32,000 bases of DNA from an unicellular cyanobacterium SU2 (GTDB lineage Bacteria; Cyanobacteriota; Cyanobacteriia; Cyanobacteriales; Microcystaceae), in contig NEED01000001.1 in NCBI GenBank assembly GCA_002110465.1, positions 127,650-159,649 on the forward strand, written 5' to 3'. Each line of letters opens with the position of its first letter. Position 1 is the stretch's first letter. Made by a program: the position numbers and the translations under genes. Under the pieces are notes generated by a model. That model had not been told where the DNA came from, did not search any database, and saw only the letters and a list, made by a program, of their open reading frames with translations. Of the stretch, positions 1 through 11,056 are shown piece after piece.

Positions 1-1293
1 GTTTATATTGTAGTGATGGTCGTCTATAGTCCCTTATTAACTGCGGTTGCTTTAGGCATTGTTCCTATTTTTGTGGTAATGACCCTCATCTTCTCCCCCA
101 CCATCCGTCGTCAACTGCGGACAAAGGCTGAGCGCAACGCCCAAACGCAGTCCTATCTCGTCGAAGTGATGTCAGGCATTCAAACCGTTAAAGCCCAAAA
201 TATTGAATTGCGATCGCGTTGGCAATGGCAAGATAAATACTCCCGTTACGTCTCAGCAGGGTTTAATACCGTCATTACCTCCACCCTAGCCAGTTCCACC
301 AGTAACTTCCTGAATAAACTCTCCGGGCTATTGGTGTTATGGGTCGGAGCATATTTAGTGCTACAAGGAGATCTAACTCTGGGGCAATTGATCGCCTTCC
401 GAATCATTGCCAGTTACGTAACATCTCCCATTCTGCGCTTAACCCAACTTTGGCAAAACTTCCAAGAAACCGCCCTGTCCTTAGAACGGTTAGCCGACAT
501 TGTAGACACCCCCCAAGAAGCTGAACAAGACAGACAAAACATTCCGATGCCATTAATTCAAGGGGCTGTCAAGTATGAAAAAGTCTGTTTCCGTTTCAAA
601 AAACACGGCCCCTTACAACTCTACAATGTAGACCTGGAATTTCCCCCAGGAACCTTTGTCGCCGTGGTTGGGCAAAGTGGAGCCGGCAAAAGTACCCTAA
701 CCAAATTGATGTCACGGCTTTATGAACCAGAGTCAGGGCGCATCCTCATCGATAACTACGACATTTCTAAAGTGGAATTATATTCTCTGCGTCGTCAAGT
801 CGGGGTCGTTCCTCAAGATACCCTCTTGTTTGATGGTACAGTACAAGAGAATATTGCCCTAACTAACCCCGATGCTAGTATCGAAGAGATCACAGAAGCC
901 GCCCAAGTGGCAGCCGCCCACGACTTCATTATGACCCTGCCGAGTGGTTACAATACCAGAGTTGGAGAACGGGGAGCTGCTCTATCAGGGGGACAAAGAC
1001 AAAGGATTGCGATCGCTCGCTCTGTCTTACAAAGACCTCGGATTCTATTGTTAGATGAAGCCACTAGCGCGTTGGACTATGCAACCGAACAGCAAGTTTG
1101 TCTAAATTTATTGGAGGCTTTTAAGGATACCACCGTCTTTTTTATTACCCATCGTCTTGGTTCGATTAGAGGGGCTGATGTTATTGTCATGATGGATTCA
1201 GGGTCTGTGGTAGAACAGGGAACTCATGAAGAGTTAATGGCCAAGAAGGGGCGATATTACTCATTGTATCAACAACAAGAAGCAAATCAGTAA
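1..1293 (+). CDS. ABC transporter permease/ATP-binding protein, HlyB / bacteriocin-exporter type (type I secretion); 5' end cut by window edge
   Basis: Reading frame stays open back to base 1. Hydrophobic TM segments are followed by Walker A GQSGAGKST, ABC signature LSGGQRQRIAIAR, Walker B ILLLDEATSALD and H-loop FFITHRL. An HlyD-family gene lies directly downstream. Confidence 0.9.
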   Translation, partial: VYIVVMVVYSPLLTAVALGIVPIFVVMTLIFSPTIRRQLRTKAERNAQTQSYLVEVMSGIQTVKAQNIELRSRWQWQDKYSRYVSAGFNTVITSTLASSTSNFLNKLSGLLVLWVGAYLVLQGDLTLGQLIAFRIIASYVTSPILRLTQLWQNFQETALSLERLADIVDTPQEAEQDRQNIPMPLIQGAVKYEKVCFRFKKHGPLQLYNVDLEFPPGTFVAVVGQSGAGKSTLTKLMSRLYEPESGRILIDNYDISKVELYSLRRQVGVVPQDTLLFDGTVQENIALTNPDASIEEITEAAQVAAAHDFIMTLPSGYNTRVGERGAALSGGQRQRIAIARSVLQRPRILLLDEATSALDYATEQQVCLNLLEAFKDTTVFFITHRLGSIRGADVIVMMDSGSVVEQGTHEELMAKKGRYYSLYQQQEANQ

Positions 1294-1404
1294 AGAATTA
1301 ATCACATTTGAAACTGACTAGGTGAAAGTCACAACCTAGTTTAAATTGGGTAATCTAAGTTCATTGCTCATGTCATTCAAGACAAAAAGTTAAACGTTAA
1401 AACA

Positions 1405-3135
1405 ATGAATCAAAACAACGGGAATCAAAACCAGGGGGCAATCATGACCCAAGCCTCCCAAAATGGGTCAAACTCCCTTGCTAAATCCGATAACACAGAG
1501 AATTCTCTAGGTCAAAACTTTTTGAATCCTATCAACTCTGAGCAAGCAGTGATCTTGCGTCAATCTCCCCATTGGTCAAGGGCAGTGGTTTGGACGATCA
1601 TGGGAGTAACCACAGCAACGGTAATTTGGGCTTCAGTAGCGACCATTGAACAAGTCGTTCAAGCAAAAGGTCAACTCAAGCCCCAAGGAGCTACTAAAGA
1701 AATTCAAGCTCCTATTAATGGGGTGGTTGAAAAAGTCTTCATCGAAGATGGGGATTTTGTTGAGAAAGGACAAGTATTAGTGGCGATGGATTCGGAATCG
1801 ACAACCGCCGAATTAGCTTCCTTAAGGAAAGTTAAACAGTCCCTAGAACAAGAAAATAAATTCTATCGGACACTAATGGCACAATCACTCGATCCCGAAG
1901 CAGTAGAAGCGGCGATTCTTAAGCTCGATATCCCAGTAGAAGTGGCTGCCCTCGCTCGTAACCGCACCGCTTTGATTAGAGAAAATCAACTCTATCAAAT
2001 TCAATTAGGGGAATCTGTTCCAGGGGCAAATCTTACACCCGATCAAGTTGCTAGACTCCGCGCGGCTCAAGGGGAATTATCCTCTCGTGCCATGGCAGCC
2101 CGACTGGAGATGGAACAACTCCAAAAACAACTCCGACAAACTCAGAACCAGTTAAGTGATGCGAAAAATCAGCTACAAGACGATCAAAAAGTTTTAGCCG
2201 AAATTAATAATCGCAATAAAGAAGCGATGGCAGAGGCCGAAAAAGCGTTAGAAATTGAGCAGAAAATTCTCAAGGATATTGAACCGTTACTAGAAGACGG
2301 GGCATTAGCTAGACTGCAAGTTGAACGACAATACCAATCAATTGCTGAGCGTAGACAACGGTTAACGGAACTAATTTCTAACGGAACTATTGAATATGAT
2401 CGACAAAGGCAACAAGTACAAGATAGAAAGACAGAGATTGCTCGTTTGCAAGAAGAAGAAAGGCGGTTAGAGTTGGCGATTTCTCAAGCCCAGGCTCGGT
2501 TAAACAATACTATTGTTCTGAGTGAAAAAGAAGTTCGCGATAGCTTTTCAGATAATAAAGAAAGAATTGCCGAAATTGACAGTCAATTAACCAAAATTAT
2601 TGTCGAAAACAATAAACGCATCGCCGAATTAAATAGTGAAATCAGTCGTACTCAGGTTACATTAAGATACCAAGATATTAAAGCTCCTGTCAGCGGGACT
2701 GTGTTTGAGCTCAAGGCAAGTCCTGGATATGTTCCCCCTCCTAACCAAACCGAACCCCTCTTGAAAATTGTTCCTGATGATAATCTAGTGGCTGAAGTGG
2801 ATGTGACTAACGAAGATATTGGGTTTGTACGCACAGGACAAAAAGCAGACATACGGATTGATTCATTTCCCTTTAGTGAATTTGGGGATATTAAAGGAGA
2901 AGTGATTTCTATTGGTTCAGATGCCCTAGAACCTAATGAAATTCATCGTTTTTATCGCTTTCCCGTTAAAGTCGAATTAGATCAACAATTTCTGACAACC
3001 CGCGATCGCGACATTGATTTACAATCAGGAATGTCTGTAAGTGTCAACATTAAAGTCCGAGAAAATCGTACGGTTATTAGCCTAGTGACTGAACTCTTTA
3101 GTAAGAAAGTCGAAAGTCTTAAACAAGTTCGATAA
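1405..3135 (+). CDS. HlyD-family membrane fusion / periplasmic adaptor protein of a type I secretion system
   Basis: 576 aa. N/Q-rich N-terminus, single TM (AVVWTIMGVTTATVIWASVA), lipoyl-like hairpin GVVEKVFIEDGDFVEKGQVLVAMD, very long Q/E/R-rich coiled coil, second hairpin half IKAPVSGTV and a C-terminal beta domain. Alternative in-frame ATG at 1444. Confidence 0.9.
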   Translation: MNQNNGNQNQGAIMTQASQNGSNSLAKSDNTENSLGQNFLNPINSEQAVILRQSPHWSRAVVWTIMGVTTATVIWASVATIEQVVQAKGQLKPQGATKEIQAPINGVVEKVFIEDGDFVEKGQVLVAMDSESTTAELASLRKVKQSLEQENKFYRTLMAQSLDPEAVEAAILKLDIPVEVAALARNRTALIRENQLYQIQLGESVPGANLTPDQVARLRAAQGELSSRAMAARLEMEQLQKQLRQTQNQLSDAKNQLQDDQKVLAEINNRNKEAMAEAEKALEIEQKILKDIEPLLEDGALARLQVERQYQSIAERRQRLTELISNGTIEYDRQRQQVQDRKTEIARLQEEERRLELAISQAQARLNNTIVLSEKEVRDSFSDNKERIAEIDSQLTKIIVENNKRIAELNSEISRTQVTLRYQDIKAPVSGTVFELKASPGYVPPPNQTEPLLKIVPDDNLVAEVDVTNEDIGFVRTGQKADIRIDSFPFSEFGDIKGEVISIGSDALEPNEIHRFYRFPVKVELDQQFLTTRDRDIDLQSGMSVSVNIKVRENRTVISLVTELFSKKVESLKQVR

Positions 3136-3396: not shown

Positions 3397-3909
3397 ATGA
3401 ACAAAATAGGCTTATTTTACGGTACACAAACAGGTAAGACAGAAGCAGTAGCAGAAATGATTCAAACGGAACTTGGAGGGGAAGATACAGTAGATTTACA
3501 GGATATTTCTACTGTTGAGCCTAAAGAATTAGAAAATTATGACTATTTGATCATCGGCTGTCCTACTTGGAACATTGGTGAGCTACAAGGTGATTGGGAT
3601 GGTATTTACGATGATTTAGACGATATTGATTTTAATGGCAAAACAGTTGCTTATTTTGGGACAGGAGATCAAATCGGCTATAGTGACAATTTTCAGGATG
3701 CCATTGGTATTTTAGAAGAAAAAATTAGTGGATTGGGCGGAAAAACTGTCGGTTATTGGCCAACCGATGGTTATGACTTCAGCGAGTCCAAGGCAGTGAA
3801 TAATGGCAAGTTTGTGGGTTTAGCTCTTGATGAAGATAATCAACCAGAATTAACAGAGCAACGAATTAAGACTTGGATAGGTCAATTGAAGAACGAATTT
3901 GGCTTGTAA
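3397..3909 (+). CDS. isiB: Long-chain flavodoxin
   Basis: 170 aa. N-terminal FMN phosphate loop GLFYGTQTGKTE, CPTWNIGELQ, YFGTGDQIGYSDNFQDA and the long-chain insertion. Full-length match to the remembered cyanobacterial flavodoxin pattern. Confidence 0.95.
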   Translation: MNKIGLFYGTQTGKTEAVAEMIQTELGGEDTVDLQDISTVEPKELENYDYLIIGCPTWNIGELQGDWDGIYDDLDDIDFNGKTVAYFGTGDQIGYSDNFQDAIGILEEKISGLGGKTVGYWPTDGYDFSESKAVNNGKFVGLALDEDNQPELTEQRIKTWIGQLKNEFGL

Positions 3910-4998: not shown

Positions 4999-6255
4999 AT
5001 GGATTTACTTGAATATCAAGCGAAAGAACTTTTTCATCGGGTGGGTATTCCCATTTTGCCATCCCAACCCATCGCTAATCTCAGTGAAATCAAACATCTC
5101 CAGATTCCCTATCCGGTCGTGTTAAAGTCACAAGTGCGTTCTGGGGGTCGTGGCAGGGCCGGAGGTATCCGCTTTGTAGAAAATACTATAGATGCGATCG
5201 CGGCTGCTCAAGCAATTTTTAGTCTGGCGATTTTAGGAGAATATCCTGAAGTAATCTTGGCAGAAGCTCGCTATGATACCCAATCAGAATTTTTCCTCTC
5301 AGTTCTTCTTGATTATCAACTTCAGCGTCCAGTTTTACTCGGGTCAACCCGAGGGGGAATTGAGGTGGAAACTCTCCTGAAGAATATTGAAAAAGTCGTG
5401 GTTGATGGAGACTTTTCCCCTTTTTACGCTCGCCGTCTAGCAACTAAAATGGGACTTAAAGGGGCATTGATCCCAACGGTAAGTTCTATTATCGAAAAAA
5501 TGTACCAAATTTTCGTAGAAAAAGATTTGGATTGGATTGAAATCAATCCTTTAGCAGTAAGTCCCACTGGAGAAGTGATGGCCTTAGATGGCAAAATCGC
5601 CGTCAATGATGCAGCATTGTTCCGTCATGAGGATCTTGTCGCATTACTAACGCCTCAGAAATCAGAAAGTTCTTTAATCAGCCTAAGAGAGGTTGAAGCT
5701 AAATCCTTTTCTGTCATTGAAGCTTCTCAAAAAGACGGTAAAATCGCTATGATTAGTAACGGCTGGGGATTGACTCTCACCACTTGGGATCTATTCGTGA
5801 ACCAAAAAGTGAATCCAGCTTGTGCTTGGATACTTAACGAACAAGAAGGGTTAACCGCTTTAGGAGAACAGCTAACGATTGCCTTAAAACAGGCCATGAA
5901 ATTAACTCATTTAAGGGTTATCCTAGTTAATGTTTTAGGTGATGCGAATACTTCTGAGGCCGTCGCTCAAGTAGTTGCCGATTGCTGTCAACCTTACCTT
6001 AACGGTGTCAACAACCTTCGGGAAGATCGCTTACCTCGACCAACAGGGACTAACGCCATTGATCGTCAACGGGGTCGTCAATCTCAAGGCTATTCAGTCC
6101 CATTCAAGGAACTTCCCCCTTTAGTCGTTCGCCTGGTTGGGGGAAATTTTGAACCGATTAAAGAAAGTCTTTGTGACTTGCCGATTGACTGGGTAGAGGA
6201 TTTAGAAGAAGCGATCGCCAAAACAATTTCTCTTATAACTCCTCAAAAGAAATAA
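4999..6255 (+). CDS. sucC: Succinate--CoA ligase beta-subunit-like ATP-grasp protein (divergent)
   Basis: 418 aa. N-terminal MDLLEYQAKELFHRVGIP, VLKSQVRSGGRGRAGGIRFV, EINPL and LDGKI match the SucC ATP-grasp half. The C-terminal half is recognisable but eroded. Confidence 0.8.
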   Translation: MDLLEYQAKELFHRVGIPILPSQPIANLSEIKHLQIPYPVVLKSQVRSGGRGRAGGIRFVENTIDAIAAAQAIFSLAILGEYPEVILAEARYDTQSEFFLSVLLDYQLQRPVLLGSTRGGIEVETLLKNIEKVVVDGDFSPFYARRLATKMGLKGALIPTVSSIIEKMYQIFVEKDLDWIEINPLAVSPTGEVMALDGKIAVNDAALFRHEDLVALLTPQKSESSLISLREVEAKSFSVIEASQKDGKIAMISNGWGLTLTTWDLFVNQKVNPACAWILNEQEGLTALGEQLTIALKQAMKLTHLRVILVNVLGDANTSEAVAQVVADCCQPYLNGVNNLREDRLPRPTGTNAIDRQRGRQSQGYSVPFKELPPLVVRLVGGNFEPIKESLCDLPIDWVEDLEEAIAKTISLITPQKK

Positions 6256-6355: not shown

Positions 6356-7258
6356 ATGAAATGGCAAGCTGACAGCAAAATTCTCATCCAAGGGATTACG
6401 AGTCCTCAGGGAGTTATTTATGGGGATCGGATGAAAGAATTTGGAATGAATATTGTGGCAGGAATTAGTCTTAATGGCGACATCTCTCAGGTAGGTGAAA
6501 TTCCTGTCTTTAATTTAGTAGAACAAGCCATCACTCAGCTTGGAGACATTGATATTAGTTTGATTTTTACCCCTCCTCATGAAGTATTAGATGCTGCTTT
6601 AGAGGCTATGGCATCAGGGATTCAACAATTGGTGATTGTGTCTGGGGGAGTTCCCCCCTTAGATATGGTCAAACTTCTTCATCAAGCACAAGTTAACAAT
6701 ACGTTTATTTTAGGGTCAGGCAGTCAAGGGTTAATTATTCCTGATAAGTTTTGGTTAGGGATTGGTGAGTATTCTTTTTATAGTCCTGGCGCGGTGGGAA
6801 TGATTAGTCGTGGCGATCGCCTTCTTGATGAAGTGGCTAGGGAATTAACTCAAGCTAAGTTAGGCCAGTCCCTCGCCGTTAGTTTAGGAACAGATTTAAT
6901 TATTGGCTCAAATTTTGAGCAGTGGTTACAAATAATTGAAGAAGATGATACCACTAAGGTAATTGTTCTCTTAGGCAAGTGCGACAGCTATGCTGAAGTC
7001 TCTGCGGCCGAATATATTGCGTCAGCTATTGAAAAACCAGTCATTGCTTATATTACCGGAATTCATGCTCCGATTGAACGAAATTTTCGAGATGCTAAAA
7101 CCATTGTGGCAGCCCAACTCTCTTCTTCTAGGGGACAGGTTTCTTCAGACCAAGCGATCATGGATGCTTTCAAAAAAGCGAAGGTTAAGGTAGCCAAACA
7201 TCCGTTTGAGATTGTTAAGCTAGTTAAAGCCTCTCTTTCTCGTAAATCTTCTAAGTAG
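6356..7258 (+). CDS. sucD: Succinate--CoA ligase alpha-subunit-like protein (divergent, no GHAGA loop)
   Basis: 300 aa, collinear by eye with E. coli SucD: ILIQGITSPQG vs VICQGFTGSQG, GMISRGDRL vs GIVSRSGTL, KPVIAYITGIHAP vs KPVVGYIAGVTAP. Confidence 0.75.
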   Translation: MKWQADSKILIQGITSPQGVIYGDRMKEFGMNIVAGISLNGDISQVGEIPVFNLVEQAITQLGDIDISLIFTPPHEVLDAALEAMASGIQQLVIVSGGVPPLDMVKLLHQAQVNNTFILGSGSQGLIIPDKFWLGIGEYSFYSPGAVGMISRGDRLLDEVARELTQAKLGQSLAVSLGTDLIIGSNFEQWLQIIEEDDTTKVIVLLGKCDSYAEVSAAEYIASAIEKPVIAYITGIHAPIERNFRDAKTIVAAQLSSSRGQVSSDQAIMDAFKKAKVKVAKHPFEIVKLVKASLSRKSSK

Positions 7259-7466: not shown

Positions 7467-8690
7467 TTAATTCTTTAACGTTTCAAGCTGTGGTTCTCCT
7501 TTTTCGCTAATCCAAGCCAGATTTTTAATGCTACTTTGCACTGCATAATTACGAATTTCTTCTGGAGAACGTTCCTTCAATTCTAGGGCGACCCGTAAAT
7601 TTTCTGGAGACTGTCTGAGTTGTTGAGCATAACTAAACGCTATCGATTGAGCTTGGGGGGTTTTAGCAATGACTAACCAATCAATAAGAGGGGGAGTTTC
7701 AGGTAAAATAGACGTTGGTAATAAACAAGTGTATAGGTCTTCAAGATTAAAGGAAAATCCAATACCTGGGGCTGATTTTTGTTGAGGATGATAAACCCCA
7801 AGCAGTTTGTCATAGCGTCCTCCTTGACCTAGAATATGCAATTGATTATCTGTTTTTCCAATGGCTTTAAACACAATTCCTGTGTAGTAATCAAAGGTTT
7901 GAATCAAACTTAAGTCCAAGGTTAATGGCAAGGAAGCTGAACGACTATTCTCAACGAGTTCAACTAAATTTTTTAGATTTTCAACACTTTTTTGTCCAGG
8001 TTCATCTAACTCTAAGTCAACCACTTGTTGAAGTACCTGAGTCGGATTTCCCCGTAAATCAAATAATAGTTTCGCCCGTTTTTTTAACTCAGGAGAAGGA
8101 TAAGTAAGGGTTTCTAAGGTCACATAGTCTAGTTTAGCTAAACAGTGACGTACCTGATGTTTAAGAGAACTGGGAAAGGGATTAAGCAGCGATCGCGTCA
8201 GTCGAGCTTCCCCTAAAATTAAGTGCCAGTGGGGAATTCCTAATTGTTCGAGACAGTCAGCCACTAATAATAATATTTCTGCATCGGCTAACACTCCTCC
8301 ACAGAAAAGCAATTCTACCCCTGCTTGATAGAATTCTAGTTGTTTTCCATGATGACCCACAGGGGGATTACGAAAAACATTGGCACGGTAACAAAGGCGT
8401 TGGGGATAGGTCATTTCAGCCATGCGAGTGACGGCAGCTCGGGCAATAGAGGCTGTTAATTCTGGTCGTAGTCCTAGGTGTCCTGCTGAATTATCTTGGA
8501 GTTGAATGACCGTTGAGGGGTCAATTGCTCCTCCAGCCATCAACGTTTCTAGCCATTCAATGGTGGAAGTAACAATGCGTTGGTATCCCCATCCACCAAA
8601 GACTTGTTGAAGACGATCATTAATCCATGCTTTTCGGACAACTTCGAGGGGAAGTAAATCTCTTGCTCCGGCTGGTGGTTGATGAATCAT
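7467..8690 (-). CDS. hisZ: ATP phosphoribosyltransferase regulatory subunit (HisRS paralogue)
   Basis: 407 aa. N-terminal PAGARDLLP motif and class-II aaRS-like core (FRNPPVGHHGKQLEFYQAGVEL, GQGGRYD). No obvious anticodon-binding extension. HisS itself cannot be fully excluded. Confidence 0.7.
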   Translation of the reverse strand: MIHQPPAGARDLLPLEVVRKAWINDRLQQVFGGWGYQRIVTSTIEWLETLMAGGAIDPSTVIQLQDNSAGHLGLRPELTASIARAAVTRMAEMTYPQRLCYRANVFRNPPVGHHGKQLEFYQAGVELLFCGGVLADAEILLLVADCLEQLGIPHWHLILGEARLTRSLLNPFPSSLKHQVRHCLAKLDYVTLETLTYPSPELKKRAKLLFDLRGNPTQVLQQVVDLELDEPGQKSVENLKNLVELVENSRSASLPLTLDLSLIQTFDYYTGIVFKAIGKTDNQLHILGQGGRYDKLLGVYHPQQKSAPGIGFSFNLEDLYTCLLPTSILPETPPLIDWLVIAKTPQAQSIAFSYAQQLRQSPENLRVALELKERSPEEIRNYAVQSSIKNLAWISEKGEPQLETLKN

Positions 8691-8712
8691 GGTTTACTCT
8701 TATCCTCATACC

Positions 8713-9633
8713 TTATTTATTTTTCTTAAACCAATTAAAAAATCCACTATCACTTGATTGATCAGAAGACTTTTTATCATCATTAAGCTGTTTATTGAGA
8801 GCTTGTTTGGCTTGAATTACTATCGGGTTGTAACGGTCTCCTGTCCAAGCTTTATTGATATGAATTTTAGCCATCGTTAGTTGATTTTCTTGGAGATAGG
8901 CTAATCCGAGTAACCCATGACATAGACAATTATTGGGATCAGTCTTCAGTGCTTCTCGTAATTCTACAATGGCTTGGGATGTATTTTTTCGCTCAAGATA
9001 TTCTTGCGCTCGTCGGATAGAAGAATCAATGGGAGACACAAAAGACTTTTTTTCAGGTTCAGGCTTTTTTTCAAGTTTTTGACTTTGAGAGGTTATCTTG
9101 GCGGTGTCAGGAGCAGAGTTAACCCCTGATGGTGTCTGAACAACGCTGACTTTCTTGGACTGCATTACCAAGTAAACTAAATTTAATTCACTCAGTTGAG
9201 CGATTTTCCCAAAAACTTCTTTCAACTGTTGATATTGTTCAGTAGCTAAGGGATTGATTAACTTAAGATAAACTAAATCAATGTTCCTCGTCGCTTCACA
9301 AAGCTTTTTTGCGCTTTGACTATTTACAGTTATTTTATCTGACTCTAAAGCTAACGTTCGACCTGTTTGCCCTAAAACAATTCGGTATTCACTGCGAGAT
9401 TGCTCTTTTGAGAGAACTTCGTAAGCAGGATTCACCAATTTTGATAATAATTTATTAGCTAGTTTTTTCCCCTGCTCTGTTTTTTCCTTACAAGTATCAG
9501 GATGAAGACGATAGGCAATTTTTAGGTAACGTTGACGAATTACCTGGCTATCAGCATTAACAGGAAGCCCCAGAATTGCATAATGGTCTTCTATACTATA
9601 TTTGAATAGTCCATGTTTGATAGGAAAGCTCAT
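8713..9633 (-). CDS. J-domain (DnaJ-like) protein with C-terminal TPR-like region
   Basis: DHYAILGLPVNADSQVIRQRYLKIAYRLHPD carries the HPD tripeptide. The C-terminal segment QAIVELREALKTDPNNCLCHGLLGLAYLQENQ is TPR-like. Confidence 0.85.
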   Translation of the reverse strand: MSFPIKHGLFKYSIEDHYAILGLPVNADSQVIRQRYLKIAYRLHPDTCKEKTEQGKKLANKLLSKLVNPAYEVLSKEQSRSEYRIVLGQTGRTLALESDKITVNSQSAKKLCEATRNIDLVYLKLINPLATEQYQQLKEVFGKIAQLSELNLVYLVMQSKKVSVVQTPSGVNSAPDTAKITSQSQKLEKKPEPEKKSFVSPIDSSIRRAQEYLERKNTSQAIVELREALKTDPNNCLCHGLLGLAYLQENQLTMAKIHINKAWTGDRYNPIVIQAKQALNKQLNDDKKSSDQSSDSGFFNWFKKNK

Positions 9634-9786
9634 ATTATAAGTTTAAGCCCACTTCAGAGTGGCTGGCACCTTCTTTCTTTATATTATGTCTAAATTTTCA
9701 TAAAATAGTAAGTCTTGGCAAGATTTTGCAAAATTGTCTAAAATTTGCCTAGGGGATCCTTAAATATTCAATTGATCAATAATCTC

Positions 9787-10629
9787 TTAAACGACAGAGT
9801 TGCTATAAAAATTCTGTAACCAAGGTAATGCTTCATCTAAAGCCCGACTCAAGCTATGATGAATGTGTCCATTAGTGGCTAACAATCGTCCTGATTCAAG
9901 AATTAGAGGACTCTCGTCATAGGCAGTAATTTTACCTCCAGCTTCTTCTAAAATGATAATTCCTGCCGTGATATCCCAAGGACTTAATCCTCGTTCCCAA
10001 TAACCGTCGAGACGACCACAAGCGACATTAGCTAAGTCAAGAGATGCTGACCCTGCACGACGCACTCCTTGAGTCAGATGGGTTAAGTAACAAAATTCAG
10101 GATAGTTGGTGTCTTTAGTTTCGCAACGATCATAAGCAAATCCTGTGACTAACAAGCTACTCTTTAATTGTGTTGTTTTAGAAACTCGAATAGGACGATG
10201 ATTCAGGGTAGCTCCTAATCCTTTTGCCCCTCTAAATAACTCGTTACGAAAGGGATTATAAATTGCTCCTACTTGGGGAACGCCTTCTACCAATAACCCG
10301 ACAGATACCGCAGAAACAGGATAACTATGGGCATAATTAGTGGTTCCATCTAGGGGATCAATTGCCCAAAGATAACCACTGTCATCTATTCCCAAAAGAC
10401 CAGATTCTTCAGCTAAAATTTGATGCTCAGGAACTCGACGACGTAGAATCTCTAAAACGGTTGCTTCTGCTTTTTGATCGGCTTCGGTAACTAAATCACC
10501 AGGGCGACCTTTTTCTTCAATTTTTTCTAATTGACCACACAGATCTTGTAGTATTACCCCCGCAGTCATCACTGCTTCCGTGGCAACATCTAAGAAGATT
10601 TGTAATTCATTTTGACTAGGTTGCTGCAT
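9787..10629 (-). CDS. Inositol monophosphatase family protein
   Basis: 280 aa with the IMPase signatures EESG, WAIDPLDGTTNY and WDITAG. Confidence 0.9.
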   Translation of the reverse strand: MQQPSQNELQIFLDVATEAVMTAGVILQDLCGQLEKIEEKGRPGDLVTEADQKAEATVLEILRRRVPEHQILAEESGLLGIDDSGYLWAIDPLDGTTNYAHSYPVSAVSVGLLVEGVPQVGAIYNPFRNELFRGAKGLGATLNHRPIRVSKTTQLKSSLLVTGFAYDRCETKDTNYPEFCYLTHLTQGVRRAGSASLDLANVACGRLDGYWERGLSPWDITAGIIILEEAGGKITAYDESPLILESGRLLATNGHIHHSLSRALDEALPWLQNFYSNSVV

Positions 10630-10687
10630 AGTAAATACTTGATAGTTAAGTAAATAGAATTAACTCTAAATTCTAAATTCTCCATTC

Positions 10688-11056
10688 TTAATCGTCATCC
10701 ATAAAAATTCCTAATTGTTTTTTCCCTTTACCAAAATAACGCCCAAATTGAAGCTCATACACTTCATCTTCGTCTTGCGTCTCTACTTCTAGATCTGAAC
10801 AAGCATAACTGACACACAATAAAGCATAGCCTCGTTCTTTTAATTCGGGGGATAATCCAACTGCTTCAGGTTGATGGAGTTCTCCTGATAAGATACGCAC
10901 TGCACAGGTAGTACAAGCTCCATTCCGACAAGAAAAAGGTAATTCATAACCTTGAGCTTCTGCACTATGAAGAATGTAGCGATCATCGGGGACTTCTAAT
11001 CTATATTCTTTTCCTTCTTGGCGATGGTTGATGCGAATTTGATAATAATGGGTCAT
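10688..11056 (-). CDS. Plant-type [2Fe-2S] ferredoxin with C-terminal extension (FdC2/Fed2-like)
   Basis: 122 aa. Cluster ligands in CRNGACTTCAVRILSG and LLCVSY. About 20 extra C-terminal residues (YELQFGRYFGKGKKQLGIFMDDD) relative to about 97-aa PetF. Confidence 0.9.
   Translation of the reverse strand: MTHYYQIRINHRQEGKEYRLEVPDDRYILHSAEAQGYELPFSCRNGACTTCAVRILSGELHQPEAVGLSPELKERGYALLCVSYACSDLEVETQDEDEVYELQFGRYFGKGKKQLGIFMDDD

Follow-up and report, generated by a model that had tools for sequence, protein, structure and literature searches.

The locus described here raises the question of what a succinyl-CoA synthetase (SCS) pair does when its alpha subunit has no histidine to phosphorylate. 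The window analysed, that is, the whole stretch of 32,000 nucleotides from the unicellular cyanobacterium SU2, carries the two genes concerned:

4999..6255, + strand: SucC-like beta subunit (P0270), 418 aa, 100 bp upstream of the SucD-like ORF and on the same strand
6356..7258, + strand: SucD-like alpha subunit (P0001), 300 aa, with the CoA_binding plus Ligase_CoA fold and without the catalytic His

The SucD-like ORF at 6356-7258 matches Pfam families PF02629 (2.4e-15) and PF00549 (9.4e-07), and also PF13607. Its AF2 model has an overall pLDDT of 88, with low confidence (about 52) in the loop of residues 240-262, and Foldseek aligns the model to solved SucD chains with TM scores of 0.85-0.94. 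By this model, the SucD fold of P0001 is retained; the two-domain CoA_binding plus CoA-ligase criterion for a SucD is met by Pfam, AF2 and Foldseek alike. The initial annotation had described an intact fold-length ORF, to be checked against PF02629 and PF00549 and by structure prediction. Both domains are matched, the model superposes on solved SucD chains, and the 300-aa translation is not only intact but also under purifying selection, as the dN/dS values given below indicate. The curated cut-offs of the NCBIfam SucD models NF004230 (336 bits) and TIGR01019 (353.2 bits) are not reached, since P0001 scores 204.3 and 201 bits, respectively; many of its orthologues carry only the NCBI name 'CoA-binding protein'. 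The closest relatives of P0001, at 70-75% identity, belong to the Rhopalodia/Epithemia endosymbionts and to Rippkaea orientalis PCC 8801, and SU2 itself belongs to the Rippkaea / diatom spheroid-body genus. That this genome might also encode a canonical SucD paralogue was considered and ruled out: its 5.24 Mb hold a single CoA_binding match and no second SucD-like gene.

The residue on which the question turns is the following:

7091..7093, + strand: codon GAT of Asp246, at the phosphohistidine position (equivalent of E. coli His246-alpha) in phmmer and profile alignments

Searched against the PDB with phmmer, P0001 places 'ernFRDAKTIV' opposite 'ekrMGHAGAII' of 2yv2, 3ufx and 1oi7. With a profile built from 89 relatives, the consensus 'sfgDaatii' falls opposite 'MGHAGAII' of five solved chains of SucD, E. 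coli 2nu7 among them. Position 246 is Asp in 78 of the 89 close relatives and in 148 of the 269 proteins collected; as far as these alignments can tell, Asp246 in this genome is not a chance event. P0001 does contain histidines, at residues 75, 109, 237 and 282, and these positions hold His in only 1, 6, 23 and 10 of the 89 relatives, respectively; in the family alignment of these relatives, no column rises above about 30% His. The SucD criterion of a phosphorylatable His in a GHAG loop is not met. An Asp at the phosphohistidine position and the absence of GHAG from the entire protein had both been proposed from a by-eye alignment; phmmer, profile and fold comparisons agree on the former, and the latter holds for P0001. 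The same annotation had named a His236 in GIHAP, or any other His found in the loop position, as what would refute it. The GIHAP histidine exists, although its number is 237, and the refutation does not materialize, given that the alignments put Asp in the loop and no His is conserved.

Could the absence of the His nevertheless be an artefact of misalignment, with another His, such as His237 of GIHAP, filling the catalytic loop in three dimensions? His237 lies only 9 residues before Asp246, and the AF2 model defines the loop of residues 240-262 poorly, both of which speak for this explanation. However, at least five solved chains of SucD, aligned either pairwise or by profile, give the same ungapped match around the loop, His237 is among the unconserved histidines just listed (23 of 89), with no conserved His column to replace it, and Synechocystis and Picosynechococcus carry other residues at position 237. 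We regard an artefact of this kind as scarcely credible.

Other signature motifs of the alpha subunit are changed as well:

6389..6412, + strand: QGITSPQG (residues 12-19), at the N-terminus, where the glycine motif GxTGxxG is without its middle Gly
6713..6730, + strand: GSGSQG (residues 120-125), in place of GPNCPG on the CoA-thiol side of site I
6815..6820, + strand: Asp154-Arg155 in SRGDRL (residues 151-156), in place of the Gly-Thr with which SRSGTL caps the N-terminus of the alpha 'power helix'
6977..6979, + strand: Lys208 in GKCDS (residues 207-211), in place of Glu208-alpha of GEIGG; Gln in most relatives

In addition, SLGTD stands at residues 176-180, where canonical SucD has GIGGD. 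These five motifs are the ones that the initial annotation had listed as eroded, and each is found so in P0001. The TEG glutamate is also lost, with VSGG at the I-T-E-G site. Two further criteria for a SucD are consequently not met, namely Glu208-alpha with the SRSGTL helix cap (here Lys208 and Asp154) and the CoA-site motifs GxTGxxG, I-T-E-G and G-P-N-C-P-G (here GITSPQG, VSGG and GSGSQG), the latter being judged on motifs without any CoA-binding data. The loss of the middle Gly of GxTGxxG is common to all photosynthetic cyanobacterial copies examined.

Positional conservation was then compared between 72 canonical and 180 His-less relatives. Structural Gly and Pro positions are common to the two sets, and the positions conserved in the canonical set only are Pro121, Asn122, Ser153, Glu208, Gly210, Gly211, Gly245, His246, Gly248 and Lys268; by this comparison, what is conserved in canonical SucD alone are the active-site positions. 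At residues 154, 208 and 246, the combination Gly/Glu/His occurs 59 times, Asp/Gln/Asp 98 times, and other combinations of the form Asp154/x208/Asp246 about 25 times, such that the canonical triad Gly154/Glu208/His246 gives way to Asp154/(Gln, Arg or Lys)208/Asp246. On these counts, the three positions switch together and the change is a coordinated one. Asp154 is present in 77 of the 89 relatives and co-varies with Asp246, and Trp190 is, like these two residues, a conserved feature specific to the Asp-type clade. In the E. coli SCS structures, Gly154 caps the N-terminus of the alpha 'power helix', a cap with which the canonical enzyme holds the phosphate, and Glu208 sits next to the phospho-His at site I. 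An Asp at the power-helix cap should be expected to repel phosphate.

The beta subunit is divided between a conserved and an altered part, for which three features are relevant:

4999..5628, + strand: ATP-grasp nucleotide-binding half of beta, with Lys43, GGRGR (49-53), Glu89, Glu97, Glu181, Asn183 and Asp197 kept
6001..6117, + strand: extra stretch of about 40 aa inserted into the C-domain of beta, predicted to be disordered (AF2 pLDDT below 50)
6022-6048, + strand: conserved motif E-[ED]-R-x-x-R-[PA]-T-G, here EDRLPRPTG, inside the beta insertion

P0270 matches Pfam ATP-grasp_2 at 1.4e-37 and SucC in the PDB at 1e-40. Its ATP-grasp nucleotide and Mg residues match those of E. coli and Thermus SucC and are invariant in 94 relatives, and Glu181, the equivalent of Glu197-beta, is kept; the SucC criterion that asks for the ATP-grasp/Mg residues and Glu197-beta is met. 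Two other criteria are not. Against TIGR01016, P0270 reaches 219.6 bits (cut-off 375.55) in an alignment over residues 1-330 of 418 only, and thus does not qualify as a curated full-length SucC (TIGR01016 / NF001913). The C-domain glycine motifs, which form site I on the side of succinate and phosphate, are replaced by NGWGLTL (for NGAGLAM), NEQEG (for VGGGA) and LGDA (for FGGI). Within the insertion motif, Arg344, Arg347 and Thr349 are conserved in 84, 83 and 88 of the 94 relatives, respectively, and the motif may serve for docking or be a target of modification. Among the diatom endosymbionts, the beta copies have a degraded version of it (QDLFPIATK), yet their alpha subunits keep Asp246.

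The surroundings of the pair in the window include the following genes, the names of the last four being taken from a reading of their translations only:

3397-3909: flavodoxin gene, inserted here together with the hydrolase, relative to loci L073 and L074
4163-4903, + strand: alpha/beta-hydrolase-fold ORF, 246 aa, with the nucleophile elbow GHGTGG, in which Gly takes the place of the Ser of G-x-S-x-G
7467-8690, - strand: HisZ-like protein
8713-9633, - strand: DnaJ/TPR protein
9787-10629, - strand: inositol-monophosphatase family protein
10688-11056, - strand: plant-type ferredoxin

Upstream of the pair, positions 16-3135 (+ strand) encode a C39-peptidase/ABC exporter, cut by the window start, and a 576-aa HlyD-type membrane-fusion protein. 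The order exporter-HlyD-SucC-SucD recurs in two related genera (L073 and L074), without the flavodoxin or hydrolase genes. Downstream, the genes at 7467-11056 (- strand) are ordinary housekeeping ones, and adjacency of HisZ to the pair was seen at one other locus. Homologues of the hydrolase are present in 78 of the 131 genomes of the order. A hydrolase-SucC-SucD module was considered and rejected, given that, in every other genome for which both could be placed, the hydrolase is either on a different contig or separated from the pair by 25 kb to hundreds of kb; across 20 loci, no hydrolase is found among the conserved neighbours of the pair. The SucC-like and SucD-like genes themselves adjoin in most genomes and are unlinked in some, e.g. 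Synechocystis. At 8 of 21 loci, from 6 families (L075, L076, L079, L080, L082, L086, L087 and L089), the SucC-like gene has a divergently transcribed neighbour encoding a protein of 530-620 aa with one membrane span and a coiled coil or long helical Q-rich region, for which Pfam returns no family. The copy of this neighbour in the SU2 genome is on another contig (G000:C5:8779-10026, L092).

To place these changes in the phylum, the gene was read in 69 genomes. Non-photosynthetic lineages have a fully canonical SucD, and some families of photosynthetic cyanobacteria keep GHAG and GEIGG. Asp246 occurs in about 12 GTDB families, in which a few copies have Asn, Ser or Glu; altogether, Asn, Ser, Glu and Lys are seen at this position in otherwise intact members. 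The 29 His-less rows of Asp type group together in a maximum-likelihood gene tree, and because of this clustering a single old His-to-Asp change fits. When 50%-identity representatives were searched, the nearest 40 or so clusters proved almost all His-less. The Asp form is found in sll1557 of Synechocystis sp. PCC 6803 (BAA18380.1), which reads KRHFGDSLT, and in the Picosynechococcus proteins, which read SC[HY]DAGT and whose cluster includes ACA98894.1; the accession series of the latter suggests that it is the PCC 7002 protein, and we assume so here. As aligned, the Asp state is clade-wide and not peculiar to this genome. All 13 of the 13 Nostocaceae genomes read (loci L055-L064, L068, L069 and L035) have W[HRQ]-Q-TG, with Gln at the His position, and GQPGG for GEIGG. 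Since the sister family keeps WGHTG, this His-to-Gln loss is an independent one. The pair has no match in 212 of the 401 genomes of the phylum sample, including all 29 of family f25, and is kept in diatom-endosymbiont genomes of roughly 3 Mb.

Both genes are under purifying selection: dN/dS lies at 0.04-0.22 in alpha and at 0.09-0.27 in beta, and the pairs compared include recent ones with unsaturated dS (0.15-0.45). Deletion of sucCD in PCC 7002 leaves succinate and malate at about 60% of the wild-type level in the light and about 40% in the dark, and the mutant shows no growth at 2% CO2 (PMC5160925). In Anabaena, which has the Gln type, an introduced module that produces succinyl-CoA alters morphology, and deletion of sucCD suppresses these effects (PMC12508105). 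These mutant data show a C4-acid-linked function, not SCS chemistry. Neither do they show that the pair has no action on succinate or succinyl-CoA, given that the phenotypes are linked to one or the other of these compounds.

As for the metabolic context, the SU2 genome has no DapD, HTS/MetA, methylmalonyl-CoA mutase, 2-OGDH E1 or family-I CoA transferase, while the DapL bypass is present; hence, it contains no tested maker or user of succinyl-CoA. HTS/MetA and methylmalonyl-CoA mutase are absent from all 48 photosynthetic genomes tested, those of His type included. These two enzymes do not explain which genomes keep the His, since the comparison gives no separation of His type from Asp type and is uninformative. 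In current reviews, engineering papers and genome-scale models, sll1023/sll1557 and their orthologues figure as an ordinary succinyl-CoA synthetase (PMC7133116, PMC5160925, PMC12508105, PMC9855186). In the searchable open-access literature, we found no remark that cyanobacterial SucD misses the catalytic His, and no enzyme assay of any Asp-type pair.

What, then, does the pair do? That the canonical phospho-His ping-pong cannot run as described is well supported by the alignments, because the phospho-His and the residues of the phosphate, CoA and succinate pockets have been replaced. The initial annotation had concluded that the canonical SCS mechanism cannot operate, and the Asp at the His position, the lack of any other conserved His and the missing pocket residues support it. 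What is annotated as a "TCA-cycle enzyme" in this genome, and likewise in Synechocystis 6803, very probably departs from the textbook mechanism. It is a matter of observation which residues have been substituted, that these changes are coupled, how old and widespread they are, that selection on the genes is purifying, and that the ATP site is retained. Beyond these, we lean towards a conserved SucCD derivative in which the phospho-His cycle is impossible and a changed, ATP-linked activity is tied to succinate/malate metabolism, with the reservation that there is no biochemistry for any Asp-type pair.

In this derivative, a descendant of succinyl-CoA synthetase, assembly of the alpha/beta complex would still occur, as inferred without a heterodimer model, and ATP-Mg would be bound, and probably turned over, at the beta ATP-grasp site. 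Asp has replaced the swinging-loop His. The holders of the phospho-His at site I, i.e. two helix caps and Glu208, have been exchanged for Asp154-Arg155 and Lys/Gln208 in alpha and for NEQEG instead of GGG in beta, and the residues on the CoA-thiol side (GPNCPG, TEG) and on the succinate side (FGGI) have been replaced too. The route presumed lost is ATP -> His~P -> succinyl-phosphate -> succinyl-CoA, and Asp246 would most likely be a fixed structural or charge element rather than a phosphate carrier. The resulting function is inferred to be a changed one that is still ATP-linked. It probably still touches C4-dicarboxylate metabolism, since deletion of the Asp-type pair in PCC 7002 lowers succinate and malate. 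Its origin may be placed after the cyanobacterial loss of 2-oxoglutarate dehydrogenase, and hence of the need for substrate-level phosphorylation from succinyl-CoA.

Several points count against this preferred reading. The loss of SCS activity is deduced from sequence alone, and the genetics of the PCC 7002 and Anabaena deletions are compatible with residual action on succinyl-CoA. Moreover, a loop still able to reach the ATP site is likewise compatible with how strongly Asp246 and the Glu197-beta equivalent are conserved, and neither the assembly of the complex nor the geometry of Asp246 has been demonstrated, the AF2 loop at residues 240-262 being of low confidence. One alternative is accordingly that the pair remains a succinate/succinyl-CoA enzyme with altered chemistry, in which the swinging loop bears an aspartyl (acyl) phosphate at Asp246, or transfer is direct, or the chemistry is confined to the half reaction of site I (succinyl-CoA + Pi -> succinyl-phosphate + CoA), with the in vivo link between succinyl-CoA and succinate kept. 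The maintenance of Asp246 across about 12 families is in line with this, as are the invariance of the ATP/Mg ligands and of the Glu197-beta equivalent, which contacts the phospho-His at the ATP site in canonical SCS, the lowered succinate and malate in the PCC 7002 mutant, and the suppression of the succinyl-CoA-producing module by the Anabaena deletion. However, the phosphate pocket of site I has been dismantled (Asp at the power-helix N-cap, loss of the beta GGG cap and of Glu208), the CoA-thiol residues and the TEG glutamate are gone, and the own genome offers no tested producer or consumer of succinyl-CoA. Furthermore, a strict phospho-acceptor would forbid the Asn, Ser, Glu or Lys that stand at position 246 in otherwise intact members. 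We hold altered chemistry of this kind to be rather unlikely, though still to be reckoned with.

Much harder to maintain is the notion of an inert, dead enzyme that drifts towards loss and is kept by chance or as a passenger. The genes are indeed missing from many cyanobacteria (the 212 of 401 without a match, with f25 at 0/29), and erosion of the active site comes in degrees among the cyanobacteria, affecting even some His-retaining copies. Nevertheless, both genes have a dN/dS within 0.04-0.27 and are found unbroken throughout about 12 families as well as in the reduced genomes of endosymbionts, the ATP-grasp residues are invariant, conserved features specific to the clade have newly appeared (Asp154, Asp246, Trp190 and the beta insertion motif), and deletion in PCC 7002 has a phenotype. 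On this evidence, a mere relic is highly improbable. A bolder proposal is that the Asp-type pair forms a functional enzyme that depends on ATP and has no described counterpart in the superfamily, with either Asp246 as a swinging aspartyl-phosphate arm or an ATP-grasp ligase/kinase activity exerted directly on a C4 acid; in the ligase/kinase version, the alpha subunit and the ERxxRPTG loop of beta would have been recruited for a new substrate or partner. We consider it unlikely and advance it as a speculation. If it were true, the 'SucCD' reaction in cyanobacterial TCA maps and models, including those of Synechocystis 6803 and PCC 7002, would be wrong, and a new reaction would feed the succinate/malate pool.

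Debate over the TCA cycle of cyanobacteria goes back decades. A large cyanobacterial clade, with two main model strains among its members, carries an orthologue that lacks both the phosphohistidine and its pocket. If the pair is the conserved SucCD derivative that we favour, flux maps, engineering designs that use the native SucCD and interpretations of sucCD mutants would need re-examination. The intact ATP site, the strong selection and the mutant phenotypes point to an activity that is still unassigned.

With bacterial SucCD (E. coli 1SCU/2SCU/1JKJ; Thermus 3UFX/1OI7; TIGR01019/TIGR01016), the window pair shares the two-gene alpha/beta layout, the fold of the alpha subunit at about 30-32% identity, and the ATP-grasp domain of beta, including the Glu197-beta equivalent. 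It differs in alpha by the replacements His246->Asp, Glu208->Lys/Gln, SRSGTL->SR(G/C)DRL, GPNCPG->GSGSQG, TEG->SGG and GxTGxxG->GITSPQG, and in beta by the extra insertion of ~40 aa with its conserved ERxxRPTG motif; both subunits score far under the curated SucCD family cut-offs. A precedent for the lack of the His exists in the superfamily: the N-terminal NDP-forming acyl-CoA-synthetase-like domain of Pat/YfiQ is without the catalytic His, is not known to have synthetase activity and acts as a ligand-binding/regulatory module. Unlike the window pair, Pat/YfiQ is a single polypeptide fused to a GNAT domain, without a separate ATP-grasp partner that has an intact nucleotide site, and its domain is not close to the pair in sequence.

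Nearer to the window pair are two groups of cyanobacterial homologues. In the SucD homologues of Nostocaceae (Anabaena, Nostoc), as in P0001, both the catalytic His and Glu208 are missing; unlike P0001, they largely keep the site-I motifs, in the form of GPNSPG, SRSSTL and SIGSD. The His-retaining cyanobacterial homologues (Oxynema P0116; L026, L033, L044, L046 and L070) are of the same cyanobacterial gene lineage, at 45-50% identity, and share with the window pair an N-terminus, QGI(T/x)EPLG, from which the middle Gly is missing, as well as a conserved N-domain of beta. They keep GHAG, GEIGG, SRSGTL and GIGGD, and often TEG and GPNxPG, whereas the clade of the window has replaced them all.
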